A stretch of 64,000 bases of DNA, taken from Bugula neritina. Lineage: Eukaryota > Animalia > Bryozoa. The stretch covers positions 15,814,998-15,878,997 of the forward strand of contig OZ037767.1 of the NCBI GenBank assembly GCA_964035545.1, given 5' to 3'. The translations under genes were made by a program, and so were the position numbers. The first letter of the stretch is position 1; each line of letters begins with the position of its first letter. The notes under the pieces were generated by a model. That model was not told the origin of the DNA. It searched no databases and saw only the letters and a program-made list of their open reading frames with translations. Positions 10,866 through 58,331 of this stretch are shown piece after piece.

Positions 10866-11170
10866 TGTTATAGTTTTCAGATTTAGGGTTGATGTGCCAC
10901 CAAGAGAGTCTATTTAACACTAGAGAAACTTCACCAGTTAAGTCGAGTAGATATCGTTATATTTAATACAAGAATACATAATAAAAATCCAATGTACAAC
11001 AGTAATGATACGCACGTCTATTTAGTTTACAGCACTATCCTCAACTGAGCTAGTAGCGCGAAGCGGCTACTATTACTAATAAAACAGCTTAGCTAATTGG
11101 CTAATACATTGTTCCGGGTCAATACGCAACCTCGCGTATTGTGTTGCTGGTAGCTCCACGAGCCACCACA
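10866..11170 (-). repeat. E1 3' LTR
   Basis: Direct repeat of 18007-18311; preceded on the minus strand by PPT GGAGGGGGCAG (11171-11181). Confidence 0.97.
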
Positions 11171-11434
11171 CTGCCCCCTCCAGCAGAAAGCCCACTTTCT
11201 GATAAAATAAGATTCACATAAAAACGTATACTTCGTTGTGGGGGGGGTAAGAGAACAGTATAAAAGTATATAAAAAAACAACAACTGGTAAAAATATACA
11301 GGTATATATAACGTACACTAAGTAATAAGCAAGAGAAGGTCCTATCTACATATAGAGTACGTGCCACCATTACGGTAGGGAATGCCACAGAGAGGTAGGG
11401 GAATGAGTAGTAGGGAGTTGTAGGTAGACTCGAG

Positions 11435-12508
11435 TTAACTGCGGGCCGCACGCTTCATGCGTTTAATAGACTCCTGTAAATATTTGAGTTCACTGGAGGC
11501 TGCCTGTATCCGTGGGGCCAGCCTGTACACTTCTTGCTCCAAGTCATGCGCCCTAGCTTCTACCTCACGTAGGTTACGGGCCCAGGGGGACGAGCGAGAG
11601 GATGTTGGCTGCCTGTGTCGTTTCCGCTCTGAGGATGGAAGAGGAGGAGGGAGTGTATACGCATTGGTGTCTACTCTCTGTAGTACGACACGAGGAAAGG
11701 TATGCGGCATGCGTATAGGACTGTGAGGTGGAGAGTTAGCAGACTGTGTAGGTTTATCTGCGGCTCCAGAGATGATGGGTCGCGGGGAAGGGAAGCCTTG
11801 CTCCAGGCGAGATAGCCGAGCTGAGTCAGTGATGAGTGGTTTGATGGCGTTGAGAAAGGCAGGATATGATGATTCGTCTACTTCATAGACATGTCCTTGA
11901 TAGCACTGCATAGTACGTTGGTGCCGCAGTAGGTAATCACGATTATAGCTATATTCTCCGCAAGGGCAGAAAGTGGTGATGTAGTGCTGCGGCAAGTGCA
12001 CCTTTAGTCTGCAGTGGGTTGTGAATCGCTGCTGGCAGAGGTTGCATTCACGATTACTCTCACCTCCTTGATGGGTCCTGATTTCTCTCTCTGTGGCAGG
12101 GGTAATCCAGTTGGAGGTTGCTTCCAACTGGGGTGGCAGTTGCCTGGTGGTAGGAGTTGTTGGGGCCGGCTCTGGGTCCCATGCCATCTCTAGAGAAGGC
12201 ATGTCAGTAGAGACGGGCGCGAGTGTGTCTACAAAAGTAGAATTATTGTTAGGTCGCGGTGGATCTTTACAACATAATTCTAGTGACTGTCGACCGTTGC
12301 TAGCCTGAGAGTCACAGCTTTTGGAATGCACTCGAGGAACTGATGAATCATGTGTGGACTGACCAAGAACAGTGTCTAGCTCCAGGTCTAACAGACCGTC
12401 GGCCATTACAGTGTCTTCATCGTCATTCACATGAAACGTGGTTCCCAGTAATTCTGATTCAATCTGCTGAATTAGTTCAGAATTTACTGGCATCGAGCCC
12501 GTTTCCAT
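11435..12508 (-). CDS. E1 ORF3: accessory protein with C2H2 + CxC..H..C zinc fingers and C-terminal coiled coil (357 aa)
   Basis: CNLC-x12-H-x3-H then CPC-x12-H-x5-C; Pro/Ser-rich linker; heptad-like LREVEARAHDLEQEVYRLAP...LQESIKRMKR; intact; homologous to 28805-29626 and 51461-52534. Confidence 0.85.
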   Translation of the reverse strand: METGSMPVNSELIQQIESELLGTTFHVNDDEDTVMADGLLDLELDTVLGQSTHDSSVPRVHSKSCDSQASNGRQSLELCCKDPPRPNNNSTFVDTLAPVSTDMPSLEMAWDPEPAPTTPTTRQLPPQLEATSNWITPATEREIRTHQGGESNRECNLCQQRFTTHCRLKVHLPQHYITTFCPCGEYSYNRDYLLRHQRTMQCYQGHVYEVDESSYPAFLNAIKPLITDSARLSRLEQGFPSPRPIISGAADKPTQSANSPPHSPIRMPHTFPRVVLQRVDTNAYTLPPPLPSSERKRHRQPTSSRSSPWARNLREVEARAHDLEQEVYRLAPRIQAASSELKYLQESIKRMKRAARS

Positions 12509-12525
12509 GAATAGGAATACAAGAC

Positions 12526-15500
12526 TTATACTGGCTTACCTGGGAACTCGGTATTAATGTCCATACTCAACGTTCTTGGTAAGGTTGGAGCTGGTTGTGA
12601 GATACGTCTGCCTTTGGCGATGTCAGCATAAGAAAAGGCTGAGCATCGTTTCTGAGGCACGAGGTCGGAACTATTTGCTTTACGCGCATTAATTCCTCCC
12701 ACTATTCCGCCCTCGCAAAAGTTGATATTTGCGTGGGGTTCACAACTCCAACATTTTATCGTACGGTTTTCCCCTAGACTTTCATGTGTGCCGCTTTTAA
12801 CGCAGTCACATACGAAGTCTTTCAAGTATGCGGGGGGTTGCCTCGTACGCTGTCCCCTTTCTAGGGGGGGTGACACGCTTGCCGGTTCGTTAGTAGGGGC
12901 TTCAAATGGCGTCTCTACTTCACCGTTAGTGGTCACCTCTTCTTGTTCTCCGGATGGAGCCCCTCCCTCCGTGGGGGTTTGCACTTCCGGAACCGGCTCG
13001 GTTTCTGGAAGTGATGGAATTAGACTTGGCGGTGGCGGACACGCTTCTGTTGACAAAAGCTGCCGCTCCTCTCTCACCAAGTTTTCCTCCCGCGGTATGA
13101 CCACTTCGTATTCAGGTCCATGCCGCCGTCGCCCGCGCGTCGTTGTCTGCCTCCTGGGCTCTAACAACGGGGGGGGCTTTTCCCACTCCGCCGGGGCTAG
13201 CCCAATACGGTTTCAAGCGAGACTCATTCTGGATAGACACCTGTCCTGAGCGCTCGATCTTGTACGTATGATTGGGCATAGCCTCGACGACCACGTAGGG
13301 GCCTACGAACTTAGGCTTCAGCTTATCAGCCTGTCCGCGGCGCCTACGGTAATTGACCATCCACACCTTATCTCCTCTTTGATAGAGGGGTGGTTCATCG
13401 GAATCTTCGTGCCGCACCTTCCACTGCTGTTGACGCAGTATCTCGTGTGCGGCCTTCATCCGTTCCACTAGTTCACTGGCATACTCGTGGACTGAGTTAT
13501 CCTGCTCTGGAACGTGATAGGTGAGATGGTCAGGGACACGAGTCTCTCTCCCGAGCATCAAGAGGTTTGGGGTCTCACCAGTACTGGTGTGTGGGGTGCT
13601 ACGGTATGCACGCATGACTTGCGGCAACACCGTATCCCATTCCTCTTGACCTCGTCCAAGGAGGAGACTCCGGAGCGCATCACCTAGCATCCGGTTGTTG
13701 CGCTCCACCACCCCGTTACCTTGAGGGTGGTAGGGGGTGGTCCTGCTCTGATTTACTCCCCAGAGGTGGCAAAGGTCACTCATCAGTTGAGACTGGAATT
13801 GAGCGCCTTGATCAGAGTGTATCTGTTCGGGAAGCCCAAAATAACAGAATACATGTTGGTCTAGTGCCCTGGCCACTGTTGGGGCTGATGCATCTGGGAT
13901 AGCCAGAGCATCCGCCCACCTAGTAAAGTGGTCGGTTAGTACTAGGATCCAATTATTGCCTCTGGGGGTCAGGGGCATGGGTCCGACCAGGTCTACAGCG
14001 ACTACTTGCCAGGGCCTACCAGCATATAGCCTCCGCCGTCCTGCTTCACCAGGGGGGCGGCTATGCTTACTGGCCTGGCAGATCTCACACTGTTTGACTC
14101 TGAGCCGGACGTCACGCTCCATCTGCGGCCAATACCACCGGAGTCGTAATTTGGATATCACTCGCTTGACCCCTGCGTGGGCCTGCTTGTGAGTATCCCA
14201 AATCAACTCACGGCGGATGGCTGTGGGGCAGACTACCCTCTTCCTTTCCGGGTGTCTGCCGCTGGCAGCTAGAGAGATGGTTAGCAACCCATCCTGCCCG
14301 ATCCGCAGCGAGTCCCAACGCTGACAGTATAGCCGGAACTCGGCGCATCCCTGTCGTATGCGTTCCTCGCTGGGTCGTCGCCCTTCCCTTTTGGCCCGGT
14401 AGATGTCTGCCACGACTCCAGGCAGCTCTTCTTGGAGCTTCTTCAGCTCTCGAACATTACCGGCCAGTACAGGGTTGGCGCGGAGGTTTTGTACATCCTC
14501 CGGGGACTCATCAACTCTTTGCCTGAGTTGACCTTGATCCCAGTCAAACGGTGCTCCGTGATGAGCCAGCGTCTCCAACTCGCATCGTGGGGGACCTCCG
14601 TCCCTCCTCTCGATGTTGAGACACTGTTTGCAACCTCCGTCAGGTCGGCGACTCAACCCATCCGCATTGCTGTGTCTCTTGCCCGGTCGGTGTTCGATCC
14701 GGTACGAGAATTCAGCTAGGATTTCGAGCCACCGGGCGACCTGACTAGAGGGCTCTGCTCTCCTGCACAACCAGATCAGCGAGGCATGATCCGTACGCAG
14801 CCGGAACTTCCTGCCATATAGGTATGGTCTGAAGTGCTTCACTGACTTGATTACTGCCAGCAGCTCCTTGCGGGTAGTGCAGTAATTTCGTTCAGCGGGA
14901 GAGAGAGACTTGCTGTAGTAGGCTACTACTACTTCTCGGCCTTCCTGCACTTGTGACAGCACAGCGCCAACATTCTGGTCACTGGCGTCCGTGTCTAGGA
15001 TGTACTCCAGAGTGGGGTCTGGGTAGGCCAAGATGGGCGCCGTTAGGAGGCAGCCCTTGAGGCGGTCGAACGCTTCTTGTTCGACTAGAGTCCACTGCCA
15101 CGTCACTCCCTTTGCGGTAAGCCGGTTTAACGGCTGGGCTATGCCCGCAAAGTCTGGTATGTATTGCCTGTAATACCCTACCAGCCCCAAGAAAGCCCGG
15201 AGTCCGGTCAAGTATTGAGGGGTGACCCAGTCTTCTACTGCCCGTACCTTTTCGGGATCCGTTGCCACGCCGTTTCGACCGACAACGTGCCCCAGGTACT
15301 TGACCTCCGGCTGCAACAGAGCGCACTTGGAAGGTTTGAGCTTAAGACCGGCACCTCGGAGTCTCTCGAAAACCTCCTGCAGACGACTGACATGTGTCTC
15401 GAAGTCTGGAGAGATTACGATGACATCATCGAGGTAGACCAGCAGTGTCTTCCAATGGAGTCCGCTAAGGACTTGTTCCATCAGCCTCTGGAAGGTGGCT

Positions 15501-17148
15501 GGGGCGGAGGTTAACCCGAAGGGCAGCACCTTCCACTTCCACAAACCGTCCCGTGTAATAAACGCCGCTTTCTCTTGGGCGTCGGGACTCAGAGGAACCT
15601 GCCAATAGCCGCTTAGCAAGTCTAACGTACTGAAGTACTTGCTGCCGGCTAGGGCGTCCAATGACTCGTCAATACGAGGTAGAGGGTAGGCGTCCTGTAT
15701 GGTTACGCTATTGAGTTTGCGGTAGTCCACACAGAACCGCCAACTGCCGTCTTTCTTCCGGACCAGTACGACTGGCGAGCTCCACGCACTATGGGCGGGC
15801 TCTATCAGTCCCCGGTCCAGAAGATCCCGTACTTGTCGGCTAACCTCCTTCTCTTTCTCCGGCCCCAGCCTGCGCGTGGGCTGCCGGACAGGGACTGTCC
15901 CTGCAGTCAGCGGTATTTCGTGTCTGACAATTCTTGTCAGTCCCACGTCATTCTCCCCGCTGCTGAACACATCACCGTAGTCGCGTAGTAACTTGGCCAT
16001 AGCTTGGCGTTCTCTGTTACTCGCGCAGCCGCCACTGGCTGTTTCGTATAACTCCCGGAGATGTGTCGGGACTGCCCCTCGTCCCTGAATAGGGTGTCGA
16101 GGGGGTGCCTCCGTCGCGTCACCCAGCGACGGGCCCACGTCCTCTTCCTGGACGGAATGGAACCGGCCCAGCATTGACCCAGCCGGGAGCTCAATGGGCT
16201 CCGTAAAGGGGTTGACGCACTGCACTAAGACCTCCCCTCGCTCAGTTAGTCGGTTTAAACTACTGGCGAGTTGGATCTTTTCGTGCGCGCTTTCAACGAC
16301 CCCGAGCCTGGCTATCCGGTTGCTGTTCACTCGGCAGTGGATAGTAGCTCTGGAGCGTCCGGGTACGGTGCAGTTCCGAACTACCTGAACACCGCCCACC
16401 AGAGGACGCCCAAACTTATCCACACAGGCGAGTTCTCGCCCGCCCATCAGCACCACCGACTTACTAAAATCTATTCGGCACTGGTGTTGCTTCAAGAAGG
16501 GCATGCCGAGGATAGCATCTTCCTCCAGTTGACCTATGATAAAGGTCTCCTGTACAGCCTGATCTCGGACACGCCCAGGGAGCTCGATAATACCATAAAA
16601 GGGGATACATGACCCGTCTGCCAGGGTGCCATGTTCTCCAGTATACGGTCGTACTCAATCCCTGTCCCGGCGGGGCAGTGCCTCAAAGACTCTACGGCTG
16701 AGAAGGTTGGTAGTACAACCGGAGTCGAGCAGGAAAGTGACGGCGTTGCCGGCCACCTTTCCGGGTAGGAAATAGCTCTCTCCATGTGGTTGTACTTTCA
16801 CCCCCCCCCCGCATGTGCTGTCCTGGTTTGACAGGACGGCGGGGGTTTCACCCGTGGTTTACGGGGCTTCCGGCGGCGAGGTTGGTGCCGGCGGGGTCTG
16901 GGCCTCTCCACTGGGCCTTCTGGCTCCATTTCAGTGGCGGGCTCCTCCTCCCGAGGTAACCGGTGAAACCGGTTAGCGAGTGGCAGGGAAAAGGTACTGG
17001 GCCGTTGTGCGGGCCTACTAGTCCTGCGTGGTACCTGCCACTCGGGTAGAATGTTCCGCCGTGTCCGTACGGACAGACGACGGCGTGTTCCACCATACTC
17101 CTTTAGTTGCGGCCCGCGGGGAGGGAGAGTGTCCGCGGGCCGTGACAG
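12526..17148 (-). pseudogene. pol: E1 pol (PR-RT-RNaseH-integrase), interrupted
   Basis: ORF 13112-16504 has YLDD, DASD, HHCC, DDE and GPY/F motifs. TGA in the protease at 16655-16657, G10 frame break at 16801-16810, extra G at ~13169-13176 separating the tail ORF 12526-13167. Confidence 0.93.
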
Positions 17149-17973
17149 TTTAACGCCCCCTGGTATTGGGGTCGTCCTTTCTGTCCCTGGTCCTGATCAG
17201 CGCTACTCCAGCCTTGCCCCACAGGTGTTGGGGGCATCCGCAAGGCCTGACCGGGGCCAGCACCGGCCAGAATGGTTACCAATTGTCCCAGCATCTCTAC
17301 CATCTCTACGGTCCACTTCGGCTTCCAGTGAGAGGGCTTCGGAGCCTGTCGTAGCCCGAGCAGCGCTGACTCCAACTACTGGTGGGTTCCGTTGTGCTCG
17401 ATGCATTTGGGTAGCCAACAGGTAAGCTTCTCCAGCCTTCAGGGCATCCTCTATTCTGGTTATCCCTTTAGCTCGTAGGTGATGGTCTAGGCCCAGGTCG
17501 TTTAGGGACTGGACAAAGGCGTCATAGGTGTAACGCTCTTGGTGTTGTGCTGGCAGATCGCTATATGCAATATGCGCCAGCTTCTTCACCGTCGCGGCAT
17601 GTTCTTGCAGCGAGGTCCGCGGGGTGCGGCACAATCTCTTCAGCTTGGTCCTAGCGTCTATGACGGAGGTGCCAAAACGGGCCCGCAGCGCAGCCAGTAT
17701 GCCGTCTACGTCCGTTCCCACTCCGTACGGCTTGGCTTGCTCCGTCACCGCTCTCCGCAATTGAATGAGGGCCACTCTATGCGGCCATTGAGCAACTTCC
17801 ATTACCTCTCTAAATTCTTGTATAAATTGTTCGACATCTTCCGACCCAGTAAAGGTGGGAGCTTTCAAGCAATGTCTATAAGCTTCTTCTCCTTCATGAT
17901 TCACAGGATTAACAGCATTTCTACGCTCACCTTCTACTGGGGGTGGTTGCATTCTAGCGTTTTCAGTCTCCAT
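17103..17973 (-). pseudogene. gag: E1 gag, frameshifted near the C-terminus
   Basis: LKAPTFTGSEDVEQFIQEF gag N-terminus; duplicated catctctac at ~17292-17309 (+4 nt vs E3) splits it into ORFs 17203-17973 and 17103-17375. Confidence 0.9.
17110..17154 (-). promoter_or_regulatory. -1 ribosomal frameshift signal (G_UUA_AAC + 10-bp GC stem)
   Basis: Minus strand GTTAAAC TGTCA CGGCCCGCGG-loop-CCGCGGGCCG; the -1 frame is homologous to the E2 pol N-terminus. Confidence 0.8.
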
Positions 17974-17987
17974 CTTTGATATACACT

Positions 17988-18005
17988 ATCCCACCGCTGC
18001 CACCA
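17988..18005 (-). promoter_or_regulatory. E1 primer binding site, tRNA-Leu
   Basis: TGGTGGCAGCGGTGGGAT, complementary to the tRNA-Leu 3' end ATCCCACCGCTGCCACCA, 1 nt inside the 5' LTR. Confidence 0.9.
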
Positions 18006-18006
18006 C

Positions 18007-18311
18007 TGTTATAGTTTTCAGATTTAGGGTTGATGTGCCACCAAGAGAGTCTATTTAACACTAGAGAAACTTCACCAGTTAAGTCGAGTAGATATCGTTA
18101 TATTTAATACAAGAATACATAATAAAAATCCAATGTACAACAGTAATGATACGCACGTCTATTTAGTTTACAGCACTATCCTCAACTGAGCTAGTAGCGC
18201 GAAGCGGCTACTATTACTAATAAAACAGCTTAGCTAATTGGCTAATACATTGTTCCGGGTCAATACACAACCTCGCGTATTGTGTTGCTGGTAGCTCCAC
18301 GAGCCACCACA
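18007..18311 (-). repeat. E1 5' LTR
   Basis: 305-bp direct repeat, followed on the minus strand by the PBS. Confidence 0.97.
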
Positions 18312-28327: not shown

Positions 28328-28519
28328 TCATAAAAACACGATACATTATTTCTAACAAGTTACACATCTAATCTATTTCACACTCTAGCTTCGACTGAGT
28401 TAGCAGCGGGAAACTACAATTGCTGCTAACTATCAACTACGCTAATTGGTTAGCCATTGTTCCGGGTCAATTACGCGACCCTACATGTTGTGCTGCTGGT
28501 AGTTCCACGAACCACCACA
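28328..28519 (-). repeat. E2 3' LTR, truncated (outer 113 bp missing)
   Basis: Matches 35525-35716 only; no TSD at the left junction. Confidence 0.92.
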
Positions 28520-28804
28520 CCGCCCCCACCAGCAGAAAGCCATCTTTCTGATATATATAAAAAAAACATTCAATAGTAATTGCATACATCAGTGGACAAA
28601 TAATACATAATATACAGGAAGAGACATAATAATAGACAGAGTCATTATAACGATCCGTTGCATACAATTGGCCAGCTGTAGATAGACGAGGAATACTAGC
28701 TAGCTGTGGTGTTAGACAGGGGATAACCTGTTAAGCAGTCAAACATTTACATGACATCTGGGCTTCTCCCGAGAGGCAGAGTTGGAGTACTCCGAGTAGT
28801 CTAA

Positions 28805-29665
28805 CTAGAGTCCTTGTTGGGCACGCCGGTGCTTGGCTTGGCATGTACGCAGTTTCCGTTTCATACGGCATACGGATCCCTTGAGCTGGAAGAGTCCTGT
28901 TGTAGTGTTAAGTAGGTCTGGTGCCAGCTGGGTGAACTCTTCTTGTAATCGTAGGAGGCGTTCTTCTACTGTGGCTAGTCGTACTGGGTCGGGGGACGGT
29001 GTCCGTCTGCGGCGTAAGGGTGGACTGGGGGACCTGGTCCGTCTCTTCGCCGGGGTAGGGGAGATCTCTCCTTCTTCTGGATATGTAGTTTCCTCGGGGG
29101 TGTATGTAATTTGAGGGCGGTCAGACACCAACGGGGATTGTTGGCGGGCGTTGTCTAACACACGTTGGAACCCCGAGGATAGAACGGCTAATAGCATGGC
29201 CTTCTTTACCAGAGGTCGTATATATGTGAGGAACTCCGGGTACAGCTTAGCGTCGACCACATAGTTTTCTCCAGGGAAACAGCCCGCCGCTCTGTGTCTG
29301 GTGACGGGGTAGGGATACACATCATTGTACCCGCAGGGGCAGAAGGTCAGTAGGAGATGAGCATTGACGTGTAGTTTAAGGGAGCGGTGGGAGGCGCAAT
29401 CTTCACCACAGATCTGGCATCTCGTCCGTCCTCTGGACCCCCAGGCTGTTTCTATTTCTTCTTCGGTTTGTGGAGACACCCACCGCCAACGGCGGCGTAG
29501 TGGCTCAGGCCGGTCACCACTAGCATAGTCCTCCGGATACGGAGCGGGAAGCGTTCTATCCCGTACCCTGGTTGTAGCGGGTCGAGTGTAATCTGAAAAA
29601 GTTTCAACAGTGTTAGTACAGTACACTGCTGTGTTGTCAGCTTGAACAGCTTGGCAACTCCTAAT
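28805..29665 (-). CDS. E2 ORF3: zinc-finger / coiled-coil accessory protein (no 5' ATG; perhaps spliced)
   Basis: CQIC-x12-H-x3-H, CPC-x12-H-x4-C, Y.VD...YP.FL..I.PL, RS/P-rich linker, LATVEERLLRLQEEFTQLAP coiled coil; frame open from 29665. Confidence 0.8.
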   Translation of the reverse strand: MRSCQAVQADNTAVYCTNTVETFSDYTRPATTRVRDRTLPAPYPEDYASGDRPEPLRRRWRWVSPQTEEEIETAWGSRGRTRCQICGEDCASHRSLKLHVNAHLLLTFCPCGYNDVYPYPVTRHRAAGCFPGENYVVDAKLYPEFLTYIRPLVKKAMLLAVLSSGFQRVLDNARQQSPLVSDRPQITYTPEETTYPEEGEISPTPAKRRTRSPSPPLRRRRTPSPDPVRLATVEERLLRLQEEFTQLAPDLLNTTTGLFQLKGSVCRMKRKLRTCQAKHRRAQQGL

Positions 29666-30440
29666 TCAGTTACCTCGTAGAGATTAATGATAGTGAATAG
29701 TCAGATAGAACCGTATTGCAATGAGATTATAAAAATCTCTAAGTCAAACTGAGTTCTTACTACGGTATTTCACTAACCTATCTCCAGCTCGATTGACTCA
29801 GTGAGTCAGAGCTGAGCGATGCAATCTAGTTTCGTATTAAGATATAGTTAACTCACCCCACGATCTGTTGTCGTAAGACATACTGAATATGTGAAATGGT
29901 TTGAACTACTGCTTAGAAACACGTCTACTCTTGACTGCATCAGCGTATGAAAAGATCGAGCAACGTGGTTGGGGTGCGTGATTAAGACTTTGTGCACCCG
30001 GCGGATGAATTTTGTTTCTATTTCCGCCGATACAAAAGTTGATATTTCCGTGGTGTTGACAACTCCCACATTTGCTCGATTCTTTTCTCGTACGGTTTTC
30101 CCCTAGACTTTCATGTGTGCCGCTTTTAACGCAGTCACATACGAAGTCTTTCAAGTATGCGGGGGGTTGCCTCGTACGCTGTCCCCTTTCTAGGGGGGGT
30201 GACACGCTTGCCGGTTCGTTAGTAGGGGCCTCAAATGGCGTCTCTACTTCACCGTTAGTGGTCACCTCTTCTTGTTCTCCGGATGGAGCCCCTCCCTCCG
30301 TGGGGGTTTGCACTTCCGGAACCGGCTCGGTTTCTGGAAGTGATGGAATTAGACTTGGCGGTGGCGGACACGCTTCTGTTGACAAAAGCTGCCGCTCCTC
30401 TCTCACCAAGTTTTCCTCCCGCGGTATGACCACTTCGTAT

Positions 30441-33400
30441 TCAGGTCCATGCCGCCGTCGCCCGCGCGTCGTTGTCTGCCTCCTGGGCTCTAACAACGGG
30501 GGGGGCTTTTCCCACTCCGCCGGGGCTAGCCCAATACGGTTTCAAGCGAGACTCATTCTGGATAGACACCTGTCCTGAGCGCTCGATCTTGTACGTATGA
30601 TTGGGCATAGCCTCGACGACCACGTAGGGGCCTACGAACTTAGGCTTCAGCTTATCAGCCTGTCCGCGGCGCCTACGGTAATTGACCATCCACACCTTAT
30701 CTCCTCTTTGATAGAGGGGTGGTTCATCGGAATCTTCGTGCCGCACCTTCCACTGCTGTTGACGCAGTATCTCGTGTGCGGCCTTCATCCGTTCCACTAG
30801 TTCACTGGCATACTCGTGGACTGAGTTATCTTGCTCTGGAACGTGATAGGTGAGATGGTCAGGGACACGGGTCTCTCTCCCGAGCATCAAGAGGTTTGGG
30901 GTCTCACCAGTACTGGTGTGTGGGGTGCTACGGTATGCACGCATGACTTGCGGCAACACCGTATCCCATTCCTCTTGACCTCGTCCAAGGAGGAGACTCC
31001 GGAGCGCATCACCTAGCATCCGGTTGTTGCGCTCCACCACCCCGTTACCTTGAGGGTGGTAGGGGGTGGTCCTGCTCTGATTTACTCCCCAGAGGTGGCA
31101 AAGGTCGCTCATCAGTTGAGACTGGAATTGAGCGCCTTGATCAGAGTGTATCTGTTCGGGAAGCCCAAAATAACAGAATACGTGTTGGTCTAGTGCCCTG
31201 GCCACTGTTGGGGCTGATGCATCTGGGATAGCCAGAGCATCCGCCCACCTAGTAAAGTGGTCGGTTAGTACTAGGATCCAATTATTGCCTCTGGGGGTCA
31301 GGGGCATGGGTCCGACCAGGTCTACAGCGACTACTTGCCAGGGCCTACCAGCATATAGCCTCCGCCGTCCTGCTTCACCAGGGGGGCGGCTATGCTTACT
31401 GGCCTGGCAGATCTCACACTGTTTGACTCTGAGCCGGACGTCACGCTCCATCTGCGGCCAATACCACCGGAGTCGTAATTTGGATATCACTCGCTTGACC
31501 CCTGCGTGGGCCTGCTTGTGAGTATCCCAAATCAACTCACGGCGGATGGCTGTGGGGCAGACTACCCTCTTCCTTTCCGGGTGTCTGCCGCTGGCAGCTA
31601 GAGAGATGGTTAGCAACCCATCCTGCCCGATCCGCAGCGAGTCCCAACGCTGACAGTATAGCCGGAACTCGGCGCATCCCTGTCGTATGCGTTCCTCGCT
31701 GGGTCGTCGCCCTTCCCTTTTGGCCCGGTAGATGTCTGCCACGACTCCAGGCAGCTCTTCTTGGAGCTTCTTCAGCTCTCGAACATTACCGGCCAGTACA
31801 GGGTTGGCGCGGAGGTTTTGTACATCCTCCGGGGACTCATCAACTCTTTGCCTGAGTTGACCTTGATCCCAGTCAAACGGTGCTCCGTGATGAGCCAGCG
31901 TCTCCAACTCGCATCGTGGGGGCCCTCCATCCCTCCTCTCGATGTTGAGACACTGTTTGCAACCTCCGTCAGGTCGGCGACTCAACCCATCCGCATTGCT
32001 GTGTCTCTTGCCCGGTCGGTGTTCGATCCGGTACGAGAATTCAGCTAGGATTTCGAGCCACCGGGCGACCTGACTAGAGGGCTCTGCTCTCCTGCACAAC
32101 CAGATCAGCGAGGCATGATCCGTACGCAGCCGGAACTTCCTGCCATATAGGTATGGTCTGAAGTGCTTCACTGACTTGATTACTGCCAGCAGCTCCTTGC
32201 GGGTAGTGCAGTAATTTCGTTCAGCGGGAGAGAGAGACTTGCTGTAGTAGGCTACTACTACCTCTCGGCCTTCCTGCACTTGCGACAGCACAGCGCCAAC
32301 ATTCTGGTCACTGGCGTCCGTGTCTAGGATGTACTCCAGAGTGGGGTCTGGGTAGGCCAAGATGGGCGCCGTTAGGAGGCAGCCCTTGAGGCGGTCGAAC
32401 GCTTCTTGTTCGACTAGAGTCCACTGCCACGTCACTCCCTTTGCGGTAAGCCGGTTTAACGGCTGGGCTATGCCCGCAAAGTCTGGTATGTATTGCCTGT
32501 AATACCCTACCAGCCCCAAGAAAGCCCGGAGTCCGGTCAAGTATTGAGGGGTGACCCAGTCTTCTACTGCCCGTACCTTTTCGGGATCCGTTGCCACGCC
32601 GTTTCGACCGACAACGTGCCCCAGGTACTTGACCTCCGGCTGCAACAGAGCGCACTTGGAAGGTTTGAGCTTAAGACCGGCACCTCGGAGTCTCTCGAAA
32701 ACCTCCTGCAGACGACTGACATGTGTCTCAAAGTCTGGAGAGATTACGATGACATCATCGAGGTAGACCAGCAGTGTCTTCCAATGGAGTCCGCTAAGGA
32801 CTTGTTCCATCAGCCTCTGGAAGGTGGCTGGGGCGGAGGTTAACCCGAAGGGCAGCACCTTCCACTTCCACAAACCGTCCCGTGTGATAAACGCCGCTTT
32901 CTCTTGGGCGTCGGGACTCAGAGGAACCTGCCAATAGCCGCTTAGCAAGTCTAACGTACTGAAGTACTTGCTGCCGGCTAGGGCGTCCAATGACTCGTCA
33001 ATACGAGGTAGAGGATAGGCGTCCTGTATGGTTACGCTATTGAGTTTGCGGTAGTCCACACAGAACCGCCAACTGCCGTCTTTCTTCCGGACCAGTACGA
33101 CTGGCGAGCTCCACGCACTATGGGCGGGCTCTATCAGTCCCCGGTCCAGAAGATCCCGTACTTGTCGGCTAACCTCCTTCTCTTTCTCCGGCCCCAGCCT
33201 GCGTGTGGGCTGCCGGACAGGGACTGTCCCTGCAGTCAGCGGTATTTCGTGTCTGACAATTCCAGTCAGTCCCACGTCATGCTCTCCGCTGCTGAACACA
33301 TCACCGTAGTCGCGTAGTAACTTGGCCATAGCCCTGCGCTCTCTGTTACTCGCGCAGCCGTTACTGGCCGTCTCGTATAACTCCCGGAGATGTGTTGGGA

Positions 33401-34538
33401 CTGCCCCTCGTCCCTGAATAGGGTGTCGAGGGAGTGCCTCTGTCGCATCACCCAGCGACGGGCCTACGTCTCCCTCTTGCACAGAGTGAAAACGGCCCAG
33501 CATCGACCCAGCCGGGAGCTTGATAGGCTCGGTAAAGGGGTTGACGCACTGCACTAAGATTTCCCCTTGCTCAGTCAGCTGGTTCAGACTGCTGGCAAGT
33601 TGGATCTTTTCGTGCGCGCCTTCAACCACCCCGAGTCCAGAGATCCGGCTACTATTCACCCTGCAGTGAATGGTAGCCCGGGAGCGGCCTGGTATGGTAC
33701 GGTTGCGTACCACTTGCACACCTCCTACTAAAGGGCAGCCGAACTTGTCGACGCAGGCGAGTTCCCGCCCGGACATCATCATTGCAGATCTGCTAAAATC
33801 TATGTGACATCCGTGCCGTTTAAGGAACGGCATCCCGAGGATAGCATCCTCCTTGAGCTGACTGACGATGAACGTCTCTTGGATCGTTTGATCGCGGACT
33901 CGTCCCGTCAGCTCAATTATACCATAGAAGGGAAGGCACGACCCGTCAGCTAGGGTGCCGTATTCCCCTTCGTATGCTTCCATCTCGCCCCTGACCCTAG
34001 CGCTGAGGGTGTCGAAGAGTTGGCGGCTTAAGAGGTTTGTGGTACAGCCCGAATCAATGAGAAAAGTAACAGCTTTGCCTTCCAGTTTACCGGGCAAGAA
34101 ATAGCTGTTCCCATGGGGCTGCACCTGAACTCTCCCTTCAGGCCTTACTCTCGCAGGGAGTACCTCCCTCGCTTTGGGTCGCGAAGGAGGTCTCTTGGGG
34201 CGGTGATGGGTAGGCCTCGGGGGTGCCGAGGCTAGATCCTCAGCTACCTTTGTGTGCTCCCATCCAGATTCTTGGACTTGCAGCCCTGTGAATCTGTTGT
34301 GAAGGGGCATAGAAAAGGCAGCCGCGGGGCGAAGCCCTTTGCTGGTCCGTCGTGGCTGTTGCCACTGTTGGTTGCCAGTACGCGGTACCCGTCTGGGTGA
34401 CCTGCGTTTCTTCTTCCCTAGAGGTTTCATCGTCGGCCCGCGGAAGGTGGGAACATCTGCGGGCCGCGGTAGTTTAACCCCTGATTTAGGAAGGGACAAT
34501 ATCGGCGGAAATGTCCTTGATTTCCGCACTCCCAGCAA
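30441..34538 (-). CDS. pol: E2 pol polyprotein (PR-RT-RNaseH-IN); tail beyond GPY/F frameshifted into 29906-30496
   Basis: FLIDSGC, YLDD, DASD, H..H..CEIC, DDE, FVGPY motifs in a 1365-codon ORF; entered by -1 frameshift at 34472-34478. Confidence 0.95.
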   Translation of the reverse strand: MLGVRKSRTFPPILSLPKSGVKLPRPADVPTFRGPTMKPLGKKKRRSPRRVPRTGNQQWQQPRRTSKGLRPAAAFSMPLHNRFTGLQVQESGWEHTKVAEDLASAPPRPTHHRPKRPPSRPKAREVLPARVRPEGRVQVQPHGNSYFLPGKLEGKAVTFLIDSGCTTNLLSRQLFDTLSARVRGEMEAYEGEYGTLADGSCLPFYGIIELTGRVRDQTIQETFIVSQLKEDAILGMPFLKRHGCHIDFSRSAMMMSGRELACVDKFGCPLVGGVQVVRNRTIPGRSRATIHCRVNSSRISGLGVVEGAHEKIQLASSLNQLTEQGEILVQCVNPFTEPIKLPAGSMLGRFHSVQEGDVGPSLGDATEALPRHPIQGRGAVPTHLRELYETASNGCASNRERRAMAKLLRDYGDVFSSGEHDVGLTGIVRHEIPLTAGTVPVRQPTRRLGPEKEKEVSRQVRDLLDRGLIEPAHSAWSSPVVLVRKKDGSWRFCVDYRKLNSVTIQDAYPLPRIDESLDALAGSKYFSTLDLLSGYWQVPLSPDAQEKAAFITRDGLWKWKVLPFGLTSAPATFQRLMEQVLSGLHWKTLLVYLDDVIVISPDFETHVSRLQEVFERLRGAGLKLKPSKCALLQPEVKYLGHVVGRNGVATDPEKVRAVEDWVTPQYLTGLRAFLGLVGYYRQYIPDFAGIAQPLNRLTAKGVTWQWTLVEQEAFDRLKGCLLTAPILAYPDPTLEYILDTDASDQNVGAVLSQVQEGREVVVAYYSKSLSPAERNYCTTRKELLAVIKSVKHFRPYLYGRKFRLRTDHASLIWLCRRAEPSSQVARWLEILAEFSYRIEHRPGKRHSNADGLSRRPDGGCKQCLNIERRDGGPPRCELETLAHHGAPFDWDQGQLRQRVDESPEDVQNLRANPVLAGNVRELKKLQEELPGVVADIYRAKREGRRPSEERIRQGCAEFRLYCQRWDSLRIGQDGLLTISLAASGRHPERKRVVCPTAIRRELIWDTHKQAHAGVKRVISKLRLRWYWPQMERDVRLRVKQCEICQASKHSRPPGEAGRRRLYAGRPWQVVAVDLVGPMPLTPRGNNWILVLTDHFTRWADALAIPDASAPTVARALDQHVFCYFGLPEQIHSDQGAQFQSQLMSDLCHLWGVNQSRTTPYHPQGNGVVERNNRMLGDALRSLLLGRGQEEWDTVLPQVMRAYRSTPHTSTGETPNLLMLGRETRVPDHLTYHVPEQDNSVHEYASELVERMKAAHEILRQQQWKVRHEDSDEPPLYQRGDKVWMVNYRRRRGQADKLKPKFVGPYVVVEAMPNHTYKIERSGQVSIQNESRLKPYWASPGGVGKAPPVVRAQEADNDARATAAWT
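34414..34478 (-). promoter_or_regulatory. -1 frameshift signal with predicted H-type pseudoknot
   Basis: GTTAAAC, 5-nt spacer, stem CGGCCCGC/GCGGGCCG; loop TTCCC can pair with downstream GGGAA. Confidence 0.78.
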
Positions 34539-35380
34539 AAACTGACTGTTTCTCCCTGTGGCGGCGCCGATGGCCGCATGGGCTCAGGGGCGGTACTCAC
34601 TGGGTTTTGTGGTGTCAGTGTTGCTATCAGCTTGGCTAGCATGTCCGTCAGTTGAGTGACTTTTGATGCCGTCGCCAACTGGGACACGGCAGCCGCGGCG
34701 GGGGTTTCCTCCCCTTGTCCCGCGGCCGTGTCTGCGCAGTCTATCTCCACTTGGCGAGAGCTTCCGCGACTTTTATGCATTTGGTTAGCTAGGAGGTAAG
34801 CTTCCCCCTCAGTCAGAGCATCTTCAACGGTGGTGACTCCCCTAGCTAGAAACTGGTGGTGGAGACCCAGATCGTCGACAGATGCTATGAAAGCGTCGAG
34901 GGTGTACCTCTCGCGGTTGACTGGGGGCAAGTCGCTGTACGCGATCTGTGCCAGCTTCATGACCGCGGCGGCATGCTCCCGCAGCGGGGTGCGGGGATCA
35001 CGCCGCAACCTCTGTAATCGGGCCCTGGCATCTGTAGCCGAGAGGCCAAAGCGGGCCCGCAGAGAAGCAAAGATATTATCAATGTCTACGCCCAGCCCAT
35101 AGGGCTTGGCTTTGTCCATCAATGCCATTCTAAGCTTCAGCAGGGCCACCCTAGGGGGCCACTGAGCGACGTCCATTACGTCGCTAAACTCTTGAATAAA
35201 TTGTTCCACCTCCTCTTCACCCGTGAAGGTGGGCGCCTTTAACCTGTAGCGGTCTTCAGCTAGTTCTCGCGGAACCCTTCGCTCTTCTACTACATGGTTA
35301 ACAGGCATTGTCTCTACAGCATTGTCTCTACGCTCACCTTCGATTGCCGGTGGTTGAATTTCAGCATTGTCAGTCTCCAT
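34427..35380 (-). CDS. gag: E2 gag with CCHC zinc knuckle (317 aa)
   Basis: Intact ORF; CWECGNQGHFRRYC knuckle. Confidence 0.93.
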   Translation of the reverse strand: METDNAEIQPPAIEGERRDNAVETMPVNHVVEERRVPRELAEDRYRLKAPTFTGEEEVEQFIQEFSDVMDVAQWPPRVALLKLRMALMDKAKPYGLGVDIDNIFASLRARFGLSATDARARLQRLRRDPRTPLREHAAAVMKLAQIAYSDLPPVNRERYTLDAFIASVDDLGLHHQFLARGVTTVEDALTEGEAYLLANQMHKSRGSSRQVEIDCADTAAGQGEETPAAAAVSQLATASKVTQLTDMLAKLIATLTPQNPVSTAPEPMRPSAPPQGETVSFCWECGNQGHFRRYCPFLNQGLNYRGPQMFPPSAGRR

Positions 35381-35411
35381 CTTGGATGCACTATCCCACC
35401 GCTGCCACCAC

Positions 35412-35716
35412 TGTTATAATTTTCAGATTAGGGTTGATATGCTATCCAGAGAGTCTATTTATCTAGTATAGAACTGCACCAGGCTAAGTCGAGTGAACGA
35501 GTATATTTTATACACAACTATACATCATAAAAACACGATACATTATTTCTAACAAGTTACACATCTAATCTATTTCACACTCTAGCTTCGACTGAGTTAG
35601 CAGCGGGAAACTACAATTGCTGCTAACTATCAACTACGCTAATTGGTTAGCCATTGTTCCGGGTCAATTACGCGACCCTACATGTTGTGCTGCTGGTAGT
35701 TCCACGAACCACCACA
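35412..35716 (-). repeat. E2 5' LTR
   Basis: 305 bp, TG..CA, tRNA-Leu PBS at 35393-35410; diverged from E1/E3 LTRs but same termini. Confidence 0.95.
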
Positions 35717-50889: not shown

Positions 50890-51194
50890 TGTTATAATTT
50901 TCAGATTTAGGGTTGATGTGCCACCAAGAGAGTCTATTTAACACTAGAGAAACTTCACCAGTTAAGTCGAGTAGATATCGTTATATTTAATACAAGAATA
51001 CATAATAAAAATCCAATGTACAACAGTAATGATACGCACGTCTATTTAATTTACAGCACTATCCTCAACTGAACTAGTAGCGCGAAGCGGCTACTATTAC
51101 TTATAAAACAGCTTAGCTAATTGGCTAATACATTGTTCCGGGTCAATACGCAACCTTGCGTATTGTGTTGCTGGTAGCTCCACGAGCCACCACA
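50890..51194 (-). repeat. E3 3' LTR
   Basis: Direct repeat of 58027-58331. Confidence 0.97.
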
Positions 51195-51460
51195 CTGCCC
51201 CCTCCAGCAGAAAGCCCACTTTCTGATAAAATAAGATTCACATAAAAACGTATACTTCGTTGGGGAATAAGAGAACAGCGTAAAAGTATATATAAAAAAA
51301 AACAACAACTGGTAAAAAAAATATACAGGTATATATATCGTGCACTAAGTATAAGCAAGAGAAGGTCCTATCTACATATAGAGTACGTGCCACCATTACG
51401 ATAGGGAATGCCACAGAGAGGTAGGGGAATGAGTAGTAGGAAGTGGTAGGTAGACTCGAG

Positions 51461-52534
51461 TTAACTGCGTGCCGCACGCTTCATGCGTTTAATAGACTCC
51501 TGTAAGTATTTGAGTTCACTGGAGGCTGCCTGTATTCGTGGGGCCAGCCTGTAGACTTCCTGCTCCAAGTCATGCGCCCTAGCTTCTACCTCACGTAGGT
51601 TACGGGCCCAGGGGGACGAGCGAGAGGAAGTTGGTTGCCTGTGTCGTTTCCGCTCTGAGGATGGAATAGGAGGAGGGAGTGTATACGCATTTGTGTCTAC
51701 TCTCTGTAGTACGACACGAGGAAAGGTATGCGGCATGCGTATAGGACTGTGAGGTGGAGAGTTAGCAGACCGTGTAGGTTTATCTGTGGCTCCAGAGATG
51801 ATAGGTCGCGGGGAAGGGAAGCCTTGCTCCAGGCGAGATAGCCGAGCTGAGTCAGTGATGAGTGGTTTGATGGCATTGAGGAAGGCAGGATATGATGATT
51901 CGTCTACTTCATAGACATGTCCTTGATAGCACTGCATAGTCCGTTGGTGCCGCAGCAGGTAATCACGGTTATAGCTATATTCGCCGCAAGGGCAGAAAGT
52001 GGTGATGTAATGCTGCGGCAAGTGCACCTTTAGTCTGCGGTGGGTTGTGAATCGCTGCTGGCAGAGGTTGCATTCACGATTACTCTCACCTCCTTGATGG
52101 GTCCTGATTTCCCTCTCTGTGGCAGGGGTAATCCAGTTGGAGGTTGCTTCCAACTGGGGTGGTAATTGCCTGGTGGTAGGAGTTGTTGGGGCCGGCTCTG
52201 GGTCCCATGCCATCTCTAGAGAAGGCATGCCCGTAGAGACGGGCGCGAGTGTGTCTACAAAAGTAGAATTATTGTTAGATCGCGGTGGATCTTTACAACA
52301 TAATTCTAGTGACTGTCGACCGTTGCTAGCCTGAGAGTCACAGCTTTTGGAATGCACTCGAGGAACTGATGAATCATGTGTGGACTGACCAAGAACAGTG
52401 TCTAGCTCCAGGTCTAACAGACCGTCGGCCATTACAGTGTCTTCATCGTCATTCACATGAAACGTGGTTCCCAGTAATTCTGATTCAATCTGCTGAATTA
52501 GTTCAGAATTTACTGGCATTGAGCCCGTTTCCAT
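51461..52534 (-). CDS. E3 ORF3: zinc-finger / coiled-coil accessory protein (357 aa)
   Basis: Intact; 6 aa differences from E1 ORF3. Confidence 0.85.
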   Translation of the reverse strand: METGSMPVNSELIQQIESELLGTTFHVNDDEDTVMADGLLDLELDTVLGQSTHDSSVPRVHSKSCDSQASNGRQSLELCCKDPPRSNNNSTFVDTLAPVSTGMPSLEMAWDPEPAPTTPTTRQLPPQLEATSNWITPATEREIRTHQGGESNRECNLCQQRFTTHRRLKVHLPQHYITTFCPCGEYSYNRDYLLRHQRTMQCYQGHVYEVDESSYPAFLNAIKPLITDSARLSRLEQGFPSPRPIISGATDKPTRSANSPPHSPIRMPHTFPRVVLQRVDTNAYTLPPPIPSSERKRHRQPTSSRSSPWARNLREVEARAHDLEQEVYRLAPRIQAASSELKYLQESIKRMKRAARS

Positions 52535-52551
52535 GAATAGGAATACAAGAC

Positions 52552-55500
52552 TTATACTGGCTTACCTGGGAACTCGGTATTAATGTCCATACTCAACGTT
52601 CTTGGTAAGGTTGGAGCTGGTTGTGAGATACGTCTGCCTTTGGCGATGTCAGCATAAGAAAAGGCTGAGCATCGTTTCTGAGGCACGAGGTCGGAACTAT
52701 TTGCTTTACGCGCATTAATTCCTCCCACTATTCCGCCCTCGCAAAAGTTGATATTTGCGTGGGGTTCACAACTCCAACATTTCATCGTACGGTTTTCCCC
52801 TAGACTTTCATGTGCGCCGCTTCTAATGCAGTCACATATGAAGTCTTTCAAATATGGTGGGGGCTTCCTCGTACGCTGTCCCCTTTCTAGGGGGGGTGAC
52901 ACGCTTGCCGGCTCGTGAGTAGGGGCCTCTAACGGCGTCTCTACTTCACCGTTAGTGGTCACCTCTTCTTGTTCTCCGGATGGAGCCCCTCCCTCCGTGG
53001 GGGTTTGCACTTCCGGAACCGGCTCGGTTTCTGGAAGTGATGGAATTTGACTTGGCGGTGGCGGACACGCTTCTGTTGACAAAAGCTGCCGTTCCTCTCT
53101 CACCCAGTTTTCCTCCCGCGGTATGACCACTTCGTATTCAGGTCCATGCCGCCGTCGCCCGCGCGTCGTTGTCTGCCTCCTGGGCTCTAACAACGGGGGG
53201 GCTTCTCCCACTCCGTCAGGGCTAGCCCAATACGGTTTCAAGCGAGACTCATTCTGGATAGACACCTGTCCTGAGCGCTCAATCTTGTACGTATGATTGG
53301 GCATAGCCTCGACGACCACGTAGGGGCCTACGAACTTAGGCTTCAGCTTATCAGCCTGTCCGCGGCGCCTACGGTAATTGACCATCCACACCTTATCTCC
53401 CCTTTGATAGAGAGGGGGTTCATCGGAATCTTCGTGCCGCACCTTCCACTGCTGTTGACGCAGTATATCGTGTGCGGCCTTCATCCGTTCCACTAGTTCA
53501 CTGGCATACTCGTGAACCGAGTTATCTTGCTCTGGAACGTGATAGGTGAGATGGTCGGGGACACGAGTCTCTCTCCCGAGCATCAAGAGGTTTGGGGTCT
53601 CACCAGTGCTGGTGTGTGGGGTGCTACGATATGCACGCATGACTTGCGGCAACGCCGTATCCCATTCCTCTTGACCTCGTCCAAGGAGGAGACTCCGGAG
53701 CGCATCACCTAGCATCCGGTTGTTGCGCTCCACCACCCCGTTACCTTGAGGGTGGTAGGGGGTGGTCCTGCTCTGATTTACTCCCCAGAGGTGGCAAAGG
53801 TCGCTCATCAGTTGAGACTGGAATTGAGCGCCTTGATCAGAGTGTATCTGTTCGGGAAGCCCAAAATAACAGAATACATGTTGGTCTAGTGCCCTGGCCA
53901 CTGTTGGGGCTGATGCATCTGGGATAGCCAGAGCATCCGCCCACCTAGTAAAGTGGTCGGTTAGTACTAGGATCCAATTATTGCCTCTGGGGGTCAGGGG
54001 CATGGGTCCGACCAGGTCTACAGCGACTACTTGCCAGGGCCTACCAGCATATAGCCTCCGCCGTCCTGCTTCACCAGGGGGGCGGCTATGCTTACTGGCC
54101 TGGCAGATCTCACACTGTTTGACTCTGAGCCGGACGTCACGCTCCATCTGCGGCCAATACCACCGGAGTCGTAATTTGGATATCACTCGCTTGACCCCTG
54201 CGTGGGCCTGCTTGTGAGTATCCCAAATCAACTCACGGCGGATGGCTGTGGGGCAGACTACCCTCTTCCTTTCCGGGTGTCTGCCGCTGGCAGCTAGAGA
54301 GATGGTTAGCAACCCATCCTGCCCGATCCGCAGCGAGTCCCAACGCTGACAGTATAGCCGGAACTCGGCGCATCCCTGTCGTATGCGTTCCTCGCTGGGT
54401 CGTCGCCCTTCCCTTTTGGCCCGGTAGATGTCTGCCACGACTCCAGGCAGCTCCTCTTGGAGCTTCTTCAGCTCTCGAACATTACCGGCCAGTACAGGGT
54501 TGGCGCGGAGGTTTTGTACATCCTCCGGGGACTCATCAACTCTTTGCCTGAGTTGACCTTGATCCCAGTCAAACGGTGCTCCGTGATGAGCCAGCGTCTC
54601 CAACTCGCATCGCGGGGGACCTCCATCCCTCCTCTCGATGTTGAGACACTGTTTGCAACCTCCGTCAGGTCGGCGACTCAACCCATCCGCATTGCTGTGT
54701 CTCTTGCCCGGTCGGTGTTCGATCCGGTACGAGAATTCAGCTAGGATTTCGAGCCACCGGGCGACCTGACTGGAGGGCTCTGCTCTCCTGCACAACCAGA
54801 TCAGCGAGGCATGATCCGTACGCAGCCGGAACTTCCTGCCATATAGGTATGGTCTGAAGTGCTTCACTGACTTGATTACTGCCAGCAGCTCCTTGCGGGT
54901 AGTGCAGTAATTTCGTTCAGCGGGAGAGAGAGACTTGCTGTAGTAGGCTACTACTACTTCTCGGCCTTCCTGCACTTGGGACAGCACAGCGCCAACATTC
55001 TGGTCACTGGCGTCCGTGTCTAGGATGTACTCCAGAGTGGGGTCTGGGTAGGCCAAGATGGGCGCCGTTAGGAGGCAGCCCTTGAGGCGGTCGAACGCTT
55101 CTTGTTCGACTGGAGTCCACTGCCACGTCACTCCCTTTGCGGTAAGCCGGTTTAACGGCTGGGCTATGCCCGCAAAGTCTGGTATGTATTGCCTGTAATA
55201 CCCTACCAGCCCCAAGAAAGCCCGGAGTCCGGTCAAGTCTTGGGGGGTGACCCAGTCTTCTACTGCCCGTACCTTTTCGGGATCCGTTGCCACGCCGTTT
55301 CGACCGACAACGTGCCCCAGGTACTTGACCTCCGGCTGCAACAGAGCGCACTTGGAAGGTTTGAGCTTAAGACCGGCACCTCGGAGTCTCTCGAAAACCT
55401 CCTGCAGACGACTGACATGTGTCTCGAAGTCTGGAGAGATTACGATGACATCATCGAGGTAGACCAGCAGTGTCTTCCAATGGAGTCCGCTAAGGACTTG

Positions 55501-56826: not shown

Positions 56827-57127
56827 CCCCCCCCCGCATGTGCTGTCCTGGTTTGACAGGACGGCGGGGGTTTCACCCGTGGTTTACGGGGCTTCCGGCG
56901 GCGAGGTTGGTGCCGGCGGGGTTTGGGCCTCTCCACTGGGCCTTCTGGCTCCATTTCAGTGGCGGGCTCCTCTTCCCGAGGTAACCGGTGAAACCGGTTA
57001 GCGAGTGGCAGGGAGAAGGTACTGGGCCGTTGTGCGGGCCTACTAGTCCTGCGTGGTACCTGCCACTCGGGTGGAATGTTCCGCCGTGTCCGTACGGACA
57101 GACGACGGCGTGTTCCACCATACTCCT

Positions 57128-57993: not shown

Positions 57994-58026
57994 CTTTGAT
58001 ATACACTATCCCACTGCTGCCACCAC

Positions 58027-58331
58027 TGTTATAATTTTTAGATTTAGGGTTGATGTGCCACCAAGAGAGTCTATTTAACACTAGAGAAACTTCACCAGTT
58101 AAGTCGAGTAGATATCGTTATATTTAATACAAGAATACATAATAAAAATCCAATGTACAACAGTAATGATACGCACGTCTATTTAATTTACAGCACTATC
58201 CTCAACTGAACTAGTAGCGCGAAGCGGCTACTATTACTTATAAAACAGCTTAGCTAATTGGCTAATACATTGTTCCGGGTCAATACGCAACCTTGCGTAT
58301 TGTGTTGCTGGTAGCTCCACGAGCCACCACA
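58027..58331 (-). repeat. E3 5' LTR
   Basis: 305 bp, PBS adjacent. Confidence 0.97.

Follow-up and report, generated by a model that had tools for sequence, protein, structure and literature searches.

Three LTR retrotransposons in a 64-kb window of the Bugula neritina genome (64,000 nucleotides, the whole stretch of DNA analysed) carry, between pol and the 3' LTR, a zinc-finger/coiled-coil gene, ORF3, that is almost certainly real and maintained by selection. The gene apparently represents an undescribed domain family among the known non-env accessory genes of LTR retrotransposons and, to judge from conserved splice-like signals, it is probably expressed from spliced RNA. The function that we favour, tentatively and with slightly less than even confidence, is that of a transcriptional activator which would bind the LTR or an internal promoter of its own element.

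Gypsy elements of animals that lack env are generally regarded as having two genes and depending on host factors and, to our knowledge, few of their accessory proteins have been studied (CERV, the MDG1 sORFs). A zinc-finger gene that occupies the env slot, is under selection and is probably spliced, with hundreds of clusters of relatives, would show a transposon supplying a sequence-specific regulator, as the complex retroviruses do. The predicted splice structure, and the lack of a methionine ahead of the fingers in the second copy, go beyond an earlier sequence-only reading of the window, which also missed the mosaic nature of that copy and the host-like homologues in bryozoans. The broadest picture would be a Gypsy lineage with self-regulation in the style of complex retroviruses, based on a two-exon, alternatively spliced zinc-finger gene of a new family (encoding an activator and a short modulator), exchanged among subfamilies along with its cognate LTR and gag and repeatedly passed to bryozoan hosts as transcription factors; we regard this whole as possible but doubtful.

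The elements and their third gene

The elements (E1, E2 and E3; Table 1) lie on the minus strand of the window, which is their sense strand; at the ORF3 sites the plus strand is full of stop codons. Their pol domains follow the order protease, reverse transcriptase (RT), RNase H, integrase (Pfam), which identifies them as Ty3/Gypsy, and further hallmarks of that group are present, namely TG...CA LTR ends, an ATAT duplication (E1, E3) and a primer-binding site. The LTRs of E1 and E3 are 305 nt long and 99.7% identical within each element; this identity, the ATAT duplication and an empty-site join for E1 (10861-18312) in read run X1 indicate that the insertions are young. The three elements are related, share one strand and occupy 48 kb (10866-58331) of DNA with a local GC content of about 30%.

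Table 1. Elements, genes and predicted splice features, in window coordinates
Feature	Position	Strand	Basis
E1, type A, full-length Ty3/Gypsy	10866..18311	-	4-bp target duplication ATAT, LTRs, X1 join
E1 3' LTR, 305 nt	10866..11170	-	LTR comparison
E1 ORF3-A, 357 aa from first ATG: acidic N-terminal part, double zinc-finger, basic linker, coiled coil	11435..12508	-	
ORF3-A predicted coiled coil, aa 312-353	11450..11575	-	heptads; conservative substitutions among relatives
ORF3-A finger 2, C-x-C-x12-H-x5-C	11903..11968	-	
ORF3-A finger 1, C2H2 (C-x2-C-x12-H-x3-H)	11984..12046	-	pattern; weak Pfam match below cut-off
E1 predicted short intron, 311 nt; next exon starts at 12228; overlaps ORF3-A codons 1-93	12229..12539	-	sequence only
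E1 predicted mini-exon: ATG + 8 codons + phase-1 donor (12540), in last pol-frame codons	12540..12564	-	
E1 integrase C-terminal tail frame, severed from core by frameshift; phase-1 acceptor candidate 12860	12526..13212	-	
E1 pol (RT, RNase H, integrase); premature stop just upstream, 16657	13112..16654	-	Pfam
E1 gag with a frameshift close to 17308; predicted donor (phase 1) follows codon 14, exon ending at 17931	17203..17973	-	
E1 primer-binding site, presumably a match to the tRNA-Leu 3' end	17988..18005	-	sequence
E1 5' LTR; TATA-like box at LTR position ~205-210	18007..18311	-	
E2, type B, mosaic	28328..35716	-	sequence comparison with type A
E2 3' LTR, truncated to 192 nt	28328-28519	-	
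E2 ORF3-B, stop-to-stop frame of 286 codons; predicted exon start 29592 (phase 1, TACTAAC branch site)	28805..29665	-	
ORF3-B folded double-zinc-finger core, aa 50-180	29126..29518	-	AlphaFold pLDDT 93.8, pTM 0.85
E2 predicted short intron, 264 nt	29593..29856	-	sequence alone
E2 predicted mini-exon: ATG + 8 codons + phase-1 donor (29857), aligned with type A	29857..29881	-	
E2 pol	30441..34583	-	Pfam
E2 gag, open, weak CCHC knuckle match; predicted phase-1 donor, last exon base 35338	34427..35380	-	
E2 5' LTR, ~74% identical to type A LTR	35412..35716	-	
E3, type A, target duplication ATAT; LTRs 50890-51194 and 58027-58331	50890..58331	-	
E3 ORF3-A, second copy; predicted acceptor, exon start 52254; mini-exon 52566-52590 (donor 52566)	51461..52534	-	
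E3 pol, open up to donor at 52566	52552-56883	-	
E3 gag, frameshifted near 57879; predicted gag donor, last exon base 57951		-	

A sequence-only reading of the window had proposed a sense-strand third ORF between pol and the 3' LTR of each element, and all three frames are indeed open there. Two qualifications apply. E1 and E3, both type A, are 97.8% identical, so that the three elements supply only two independent versions of ORF3, the other being the type B gene of E2. Furthermore, the frame at 28805-29665 is not a free-standing ATG ORF, its first Met being codon 157, downstream of both fingers.

It had also been claimed that ORF3 stays open despite gag or pol lesions in every copy, and the lesions are as described: besides the defects of gag and pol listed in Table 1, E1 has a frameshift in the integrase tail near 13176, E2 has the same tail frameshift together with its shortened 3' LTR, and E3 has the gag frameshift. 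E1 (~13176) and E2 (~30505) have different LTR types and the same frameshift between integrase core and tail; that variant has therefore been copied at least once.

ORF3 is shown to be under purifying selection. Between E1 and E3 it has accumulated 21 synonymous differences on 258 sites and 6 nonsynonymous differences on 813 sites, giving a dN/dS of 0.086, as against 0.068 for pol and 0.52 for the pol tail. The ratio excludes a chance ORF and upholds the selection proposed earlier; its closeness to that of pol, and the position of the gene in three LTR elements, likewise support the view of ORF3 as a retrotransposon-borne, non-env gene. The highest 19-residue hydropathy of the two types is 0.56 and 1.24, so that ORF3 has no membrane segment, as had been expected, and the protein model is a soluble zinc domain plus helix; an env or env-like identity is thus ruled out.

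Between about 15900 and 12900 (E1 coordinates), that is, over RT-RNase H-integrase, E2 matches type A at 99-100% identity, as against some 64-77% in LTR and gag and 57-80% across the gag-pol junction and protease, with ORF3 at background level. This mosaic fits a cognate pairing, in which ORF3, LTR and gag would travel together on a shared enzyme core; a single double crossover would suffice to link them without co-adaptation, because they are neighbours through the LTR. The presence of two ORF3 types on a shared pol provides a built-in specificity test (ORF3-A/B against LTR-A/B).

Domain architecture and predicted fold

Types A and B are 30% identical over 277 columns (E 1e-28), and the features first noted by eye are present in both: the C2H2 finger, the adjacent CPC-x12-H-x4/5-C finger, the Y.VD..YP.FL..I.PL...L..GF block, the basic Pro/Ser/Arg linker and the C-terminal heptad helix. 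The fingers are joined by a short, hydrophobic linker of 5 residues. Each of the zinc ligands C/C/H/H/C/C/H is conserved in 55-59 of the 59 rows aligned, and the final Cys is invariant (56 of 56). All eight ligands are retained by 51 of 69 relatives, while 18 of the 69 have lost at least one, as expected for a mixture of live and decaying copies. Conservative substitutions among the relatives are found in the core and the coil, and are absent from the linker and the N-terminus.

AlphaFold models ORF3-B residues 50-180 as one compact domain of about 130 aa, confidently combining a C2H2 and a C2HC finger (Table 1), followed by a disordered linker and a 59-residue helix. Searches with the model gave no significant match in the PDB (Foldseek), among viral protein models or by VIA-align (in one run the coiled coil only; in another a best Z of 3.8); the absence of a match does not show the fold to be new. 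Below significance, the finger pair overlays the tandem DNA-bound C2H2 fingers of Kaiso (Z 3.6, rmsd 3.0, 57 residues), and the best sequence matches among solved structures are the DNA-binding C2H2 proteins SALL3/4 (E 0.011-0.03). Sequence searches of Pfam, NCBIfam and the PDB placed no family above cut-off for the ORF3 proteins of the window; finger 1 scores below the curated zf-C2H2 cut-off although its C-x2-C-x12-H-x3-H ligands are conserved, and one relative, P0145, passes that of zf-C2H2_4. Neighbours in the ESM Atlas are unnamed clusters and generic C2H2 or BTB-ZF proteins.

At helix position 6, finger 1 has a hydrophobic residue in most rows; finger 2 of type B contains prolines, and helix positions 1-2 of finger 2 are occupied by Arg in 97 of 152 and by Asp in 89 of 152 rows. 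A two-copy complex prediction scored 0.08, which speaks neither for nor against a dimer. We infer from the fingers, linker and coil that ORF3 binds nucleic acid, enters the nucleus and dimerises; the zinc-finger/coiled-coil design would fit a nuclear regulator.

Predicted splicing and proposed regulatory function

ORF3-B, with its first methionine behind both fingers, needs splicing or a non-AUG start. Both types have, near the start of the A/B similarity, a CTAAC branch site, a T-rich run and a phase-1 AG, which together form the predicted acceptor. The pattern itself is unselective, with 6-7 matches per element and the E2 (type B) site missed. Residues at the junction fit the expected N-Y-A-G in 32/32 type A and 14/15 type B relatives that cover the site, a fit that leaves 8 type A and 19 type B rows uncovered and that common descent may inflate. 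Two predicted donors are conserved, one after gag codon 14 and the other at the end of a unit of ATG + 8 codons at the pol end, and all predicted donors and acceptors are in phase 1. The mini-exon unit occupies aligned positions in the two types although the codons differ.

Among 425 GT sites of E1 the mini-exon donor ranks best and the gag donor ties for second-best; in E2 it is the gag donor that shares first place, the mini-exon donor lying below the top eight. Shuffled sequences reproduce the unit at its exact length in about 0.2% of cases per type, and at any length in 2-3%, for a pattern picked after it had been seen. In run X2, an RNA library assembled as contigs, pieces fall on ORF3, pol, gag and LTR at depth 2-7, which cannot show transcription or splicing, and no joint from that run was among the 15 joints listed, a further 209 lying outside the listing. 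Further phase-1 acceptor candidates occur inside the pol tail of E2 (30189) and E3 (52886), as in E1. Just upstream of the mini-exon, a Cys/His-containing motif is preserved where the pol tail ends in both types (12526-12750 and 29906-30060, minus strand) despite diverged DNA.

On the self-activation reading, RNA would arise from the LTR or from a promoter at the pol end, and either the gag codon-15 donor or the mini-exon would be spliced onto the ORF3 acceptor. The protein would then enter the nucleus via its basic linker and self-associate via its coiled coil, and the finger pair would recognise a target site in the cognate element. Activation would fall to the long forms, whose N-terminus is acidic (type A translated from its own ATG, and most distant clades); the short spliced form, without the acidic region, would modulate.

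An activator is favoured because the first finger is of the classical kind, acidic N-termini recur across clades and some relatives are host-like. Transactivators of the Tas type carry an acidic activation region. Acidic, W/F/L-rich tiles of 39 aa lie N-terminal of the fingers in 37 of 58 long-N-terminus proteins, against 3 of 89 C-terminal of them, counts that depend on the thresholds set and on related, non-independent rows. The joint divergence of LTR, gag and ORF3 on a common pol also supports the reading, as do the compact core, the resemblance (below significance) to DNA-binding fingers and the Arg and Asp of the finger 2 helix. Against it, the hydrophobic position 6 of finger 1 and the prolines in finger 2 of type B are unusual for fingers that read bases, an acidic N-terminus is missing from type B, and ORF3-A codons 1-93 show no conservative-substitution signal, though the linker shows none either. 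No type-specific word longer than 9-10 nt is common to the LTR and the pol-end region, where cross-type pairs match as well, and no response element was therefore found.

In foamy viruses an internal promoter close to where env ends drives Tas, which in turn activates that promoter and the LTR (PMC12789967). ORF3 would be like Tas/Bel1 in position and logic (it would be a regulator encoded immediately ahead of the 3' LTR, may have a promoter where the upstream gene ends and is proposed to activate its own element) and unrelated to it by descent: Tas belongs to Retroviridae with env, and ORF3 has no sequence or fold match to viral proteins.

Upstream of its acceptor, ORF3-A retains a start codon and an open acidic stretch of 93 codons, which 21 of 49 relatives cover and which is conserved at 73-75%, as against 51-56% in the flanking disordered coding parts. 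High conservation combined with the missing conservative-substitution signal would fit the main rival reading, unlikely overall but deserving weight, in which the ORF3 protein, made from spliced RNA in the manner of Rev and CERV, would bind a structured element in the short intron and free intron-containing genomic RNA for export or from splicing. E1 and E3 differ only once in 12300-12699, compared with about 3 differences per 100 nt nearby, and as a hint the predicted introns fold better than shuffles (z -2.55 for type A, -2.83 for type B). Recent recombination could account for the low divergence, however, and many other windows of the 3' pol region fold equally well; the 3' UTR and pre-LTR segments show no excess of folding over shuffles, and an Rfam search gave no match. 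The Arg-rich linker would suit such a factor, which would need no acidic region in type B, but the acidic N-termini are left unexplained, and types A and B have no export-signal-like motif at a common position.

The closest precedent for such a factor is CERV of C. elegans Cer1 (Ty3/Gypsy), a nuclear accessory protein made from spliced mRNA, without which genomic RNA is not exported. Its gene overlaps gag, and its 517 aa comprise H, M and G-protein-like domains together with a C4 finger; it is reported to have no homologue outside nematodes (PMC10309623). The gene logic is similar, in that the CERV mRNA is spliced and shares its first exons with gag, as predicted for ORF3, and the NLS, leucine zipper and cysteine finger of CERV are comparable with the basic linker, coil and fingers of ORF3. 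As far as description allows comparison, ORF3 differs in lying after pol and in having C2H2 + C2HC fingers and a C-terminal coil; the H-M-G layout is absent from it, its ligands being different and its model holding no G-protein-sized domain.

A gag-start splice layout by itself needs no export factor, because Tor env, a membrane glycoprotein unlike ORF3 that occupies the same slot between pol and the 3' LTR, arises either by splicing from a gag-start donor or through an internal promoter (PMC4402516).

Relatives, hosts and known accessory genes

Word-seeded searches recovered 49 type A relatives among 1847 candidates and 57 type B relatives among 1730, one of the latter being identical to ORF3-B and possibly from the same source. 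With a profile the family grew to 296 clusters, defined at 50% identity; the listing covered the best 150 of them. Distant relatives keep one layout: an acidic N-terminus, a pre-finger Trp, two fingers, the VD block, a basic linker and a terminal helix.

Two relatives outside the window are joined to pol sequence. In P0258 a single frame runs from RNase H through integrase, tail and acidic region into a distant ORF3, with 56% identity to E3 pol over RNase H-integrase and 35% over the ORF3 core; in P0130, one of 253 proteins tested, the pol-tail motif stands shortly before the fingers. These proteins support a retrotransposon-borne gene; some bryozoan relatives look host-like. Scans of metagenome contigs for an ORF3 alignment plus pol, and of viral contigs for ORF3 plus RT, found none, so that a constant position after pol rests on the three copies in the window and the two proteins.

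The fused proteins also suggest that ORF3 might be a targeting module attached to integrase, with short-intron removal (type A) or read-through joining pol to the fingers and steering insertion like a chromovirus chromodomain. The pol frame of E3 does reach the donor at 52566 in phase with ORF3. Type B, however, has a stop before the mini-exon, the frameshift common to copies 1 and 2 severs the tail from integrase, and the mini-exon ATG is conserved; a weak search among proteins of 672-2000 aa found no other pol-ORF3 fusion, P0258 having surfaced as a cluster member. We consider this reading improbable.

The far faster divergence of ORF3 than of pol, as seen in P0258, and the high diversity of the family would be consistent with host conflict and hence with a sequence-specific anti-silencing factor that binds element DNA and removes or blocks repressive chromatin, for which the plant VANC proteins are the comparison system. 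Fast divergence is, however, common among accessory genes, and no enzyme or chromatin-reader domain was found by Pfam or fold comparison; this role seems to us rather unlikely.

Organism names were on 5 of the 30 clusters looked up, and all are bryozoan gene models (Watersipora subatra, Bugula neritina). Several bryozoan relatives are host-like, with isoforms, doubled domains, adjacent loci, SUMO-type motifs and an extra shared N-terminal domain. The last is a short domain common to P0242 and P0250 (Bugula, adjacent locus tags) and P0181 (Watersipora), absent from the ORF3s of the window and without a match in Pfam; the finger domain is present twice in P0249, P0250 and P0145. Such models might mean that ORF3 is a captured host zinc-finger gene of little benefit to the element, or that host genes have been mistaken for element genes. 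Either is very improbable: ORF3 shows a dN/dS like that of pol in multi-copy young elements, it follows pol in a distant lineage (P0258), and ligands are lost in 18 of the 69 relatives, as in decaying copies. The ORF3s of the window are not single-copy loci outside mobile elements, which some bryozoan relatives may be.

The host-like relatives are scattered over a weak tree of 72 cores (128 columns, built with a quick method only from 142 motif-complete sequences thinned at 66% similarity). We infer that the finger domain has moved between element and host, by capture or domestication, and an origin of ORF3 by capture of a host gene is possible. The host-like bryozoan homologues offer a case of a transcription factor born from a retrotransposon or captured by one.

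Other accessory genes share single traits with ORF3. The Drosophila MDG1 group has conserved non-env accessory ORFs, sORF1 and sORF2, the first with a nuclear product; as far as the source text extends, they differ from ORF3 in lying upstream of gag, in being 70-110 aa long and unspliced, and in encoding a helix-turn-helix or membrane protein without zinc fingers (PMC11952523). The earlier statement that animal Ty3/Gypsy elements have no characterised equivalent does not hold, given that CERV (PMC10309623) and MDG1 sORF1 (PMC11952523) are described, in the parts available, as nuclear accessory proteins. The bdelloid LTR elements Juno, Vesta and TelKA have an ORF3 after pol that is non-env or env-like, differing from the present one in that the excerpted account makes them enzymes (DEDDy exonuclease, GDSL lipase) or membrane proteins (PMC5408684). 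Plant aORFs such as Grande gene23 occupy the slot between pol and the 3' LTR and have a nuclear product, although gene23 is antisense and from a plant (PMC7264820, in part). The accessible passages on Tor env and gene23 contain no mention of a finger domain of the ORF3 type (PMC4402516, PMC7264820), those of PMC13524379 and PMC2774666 contain nothing on such a gene, and no description of the family was found in the main text of the openly accessible literature searched.

Other features of the window may be recorded. Two long, related, host-like frames on the plus strand, 35596-36981 and 62577-63917, share 77% nucleotide identity (35788-36373 against 62718-63297) and carry a PAN/apple-like domain at the C-terminus (E 4e-4 in one) as well as a weak NHL match; E2 sits at the 5' end of the first. 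An inverted repeat of 601 nt at 37252-38525, its arms 99% complementary and separated by 72 nt, lies between TA microsatellites and encloses a frame with a weak GIY-YIG match (E 0.049), possibly a Penelope-like fragment. A tandem array with a 22-nt period occupies 43389-43718.
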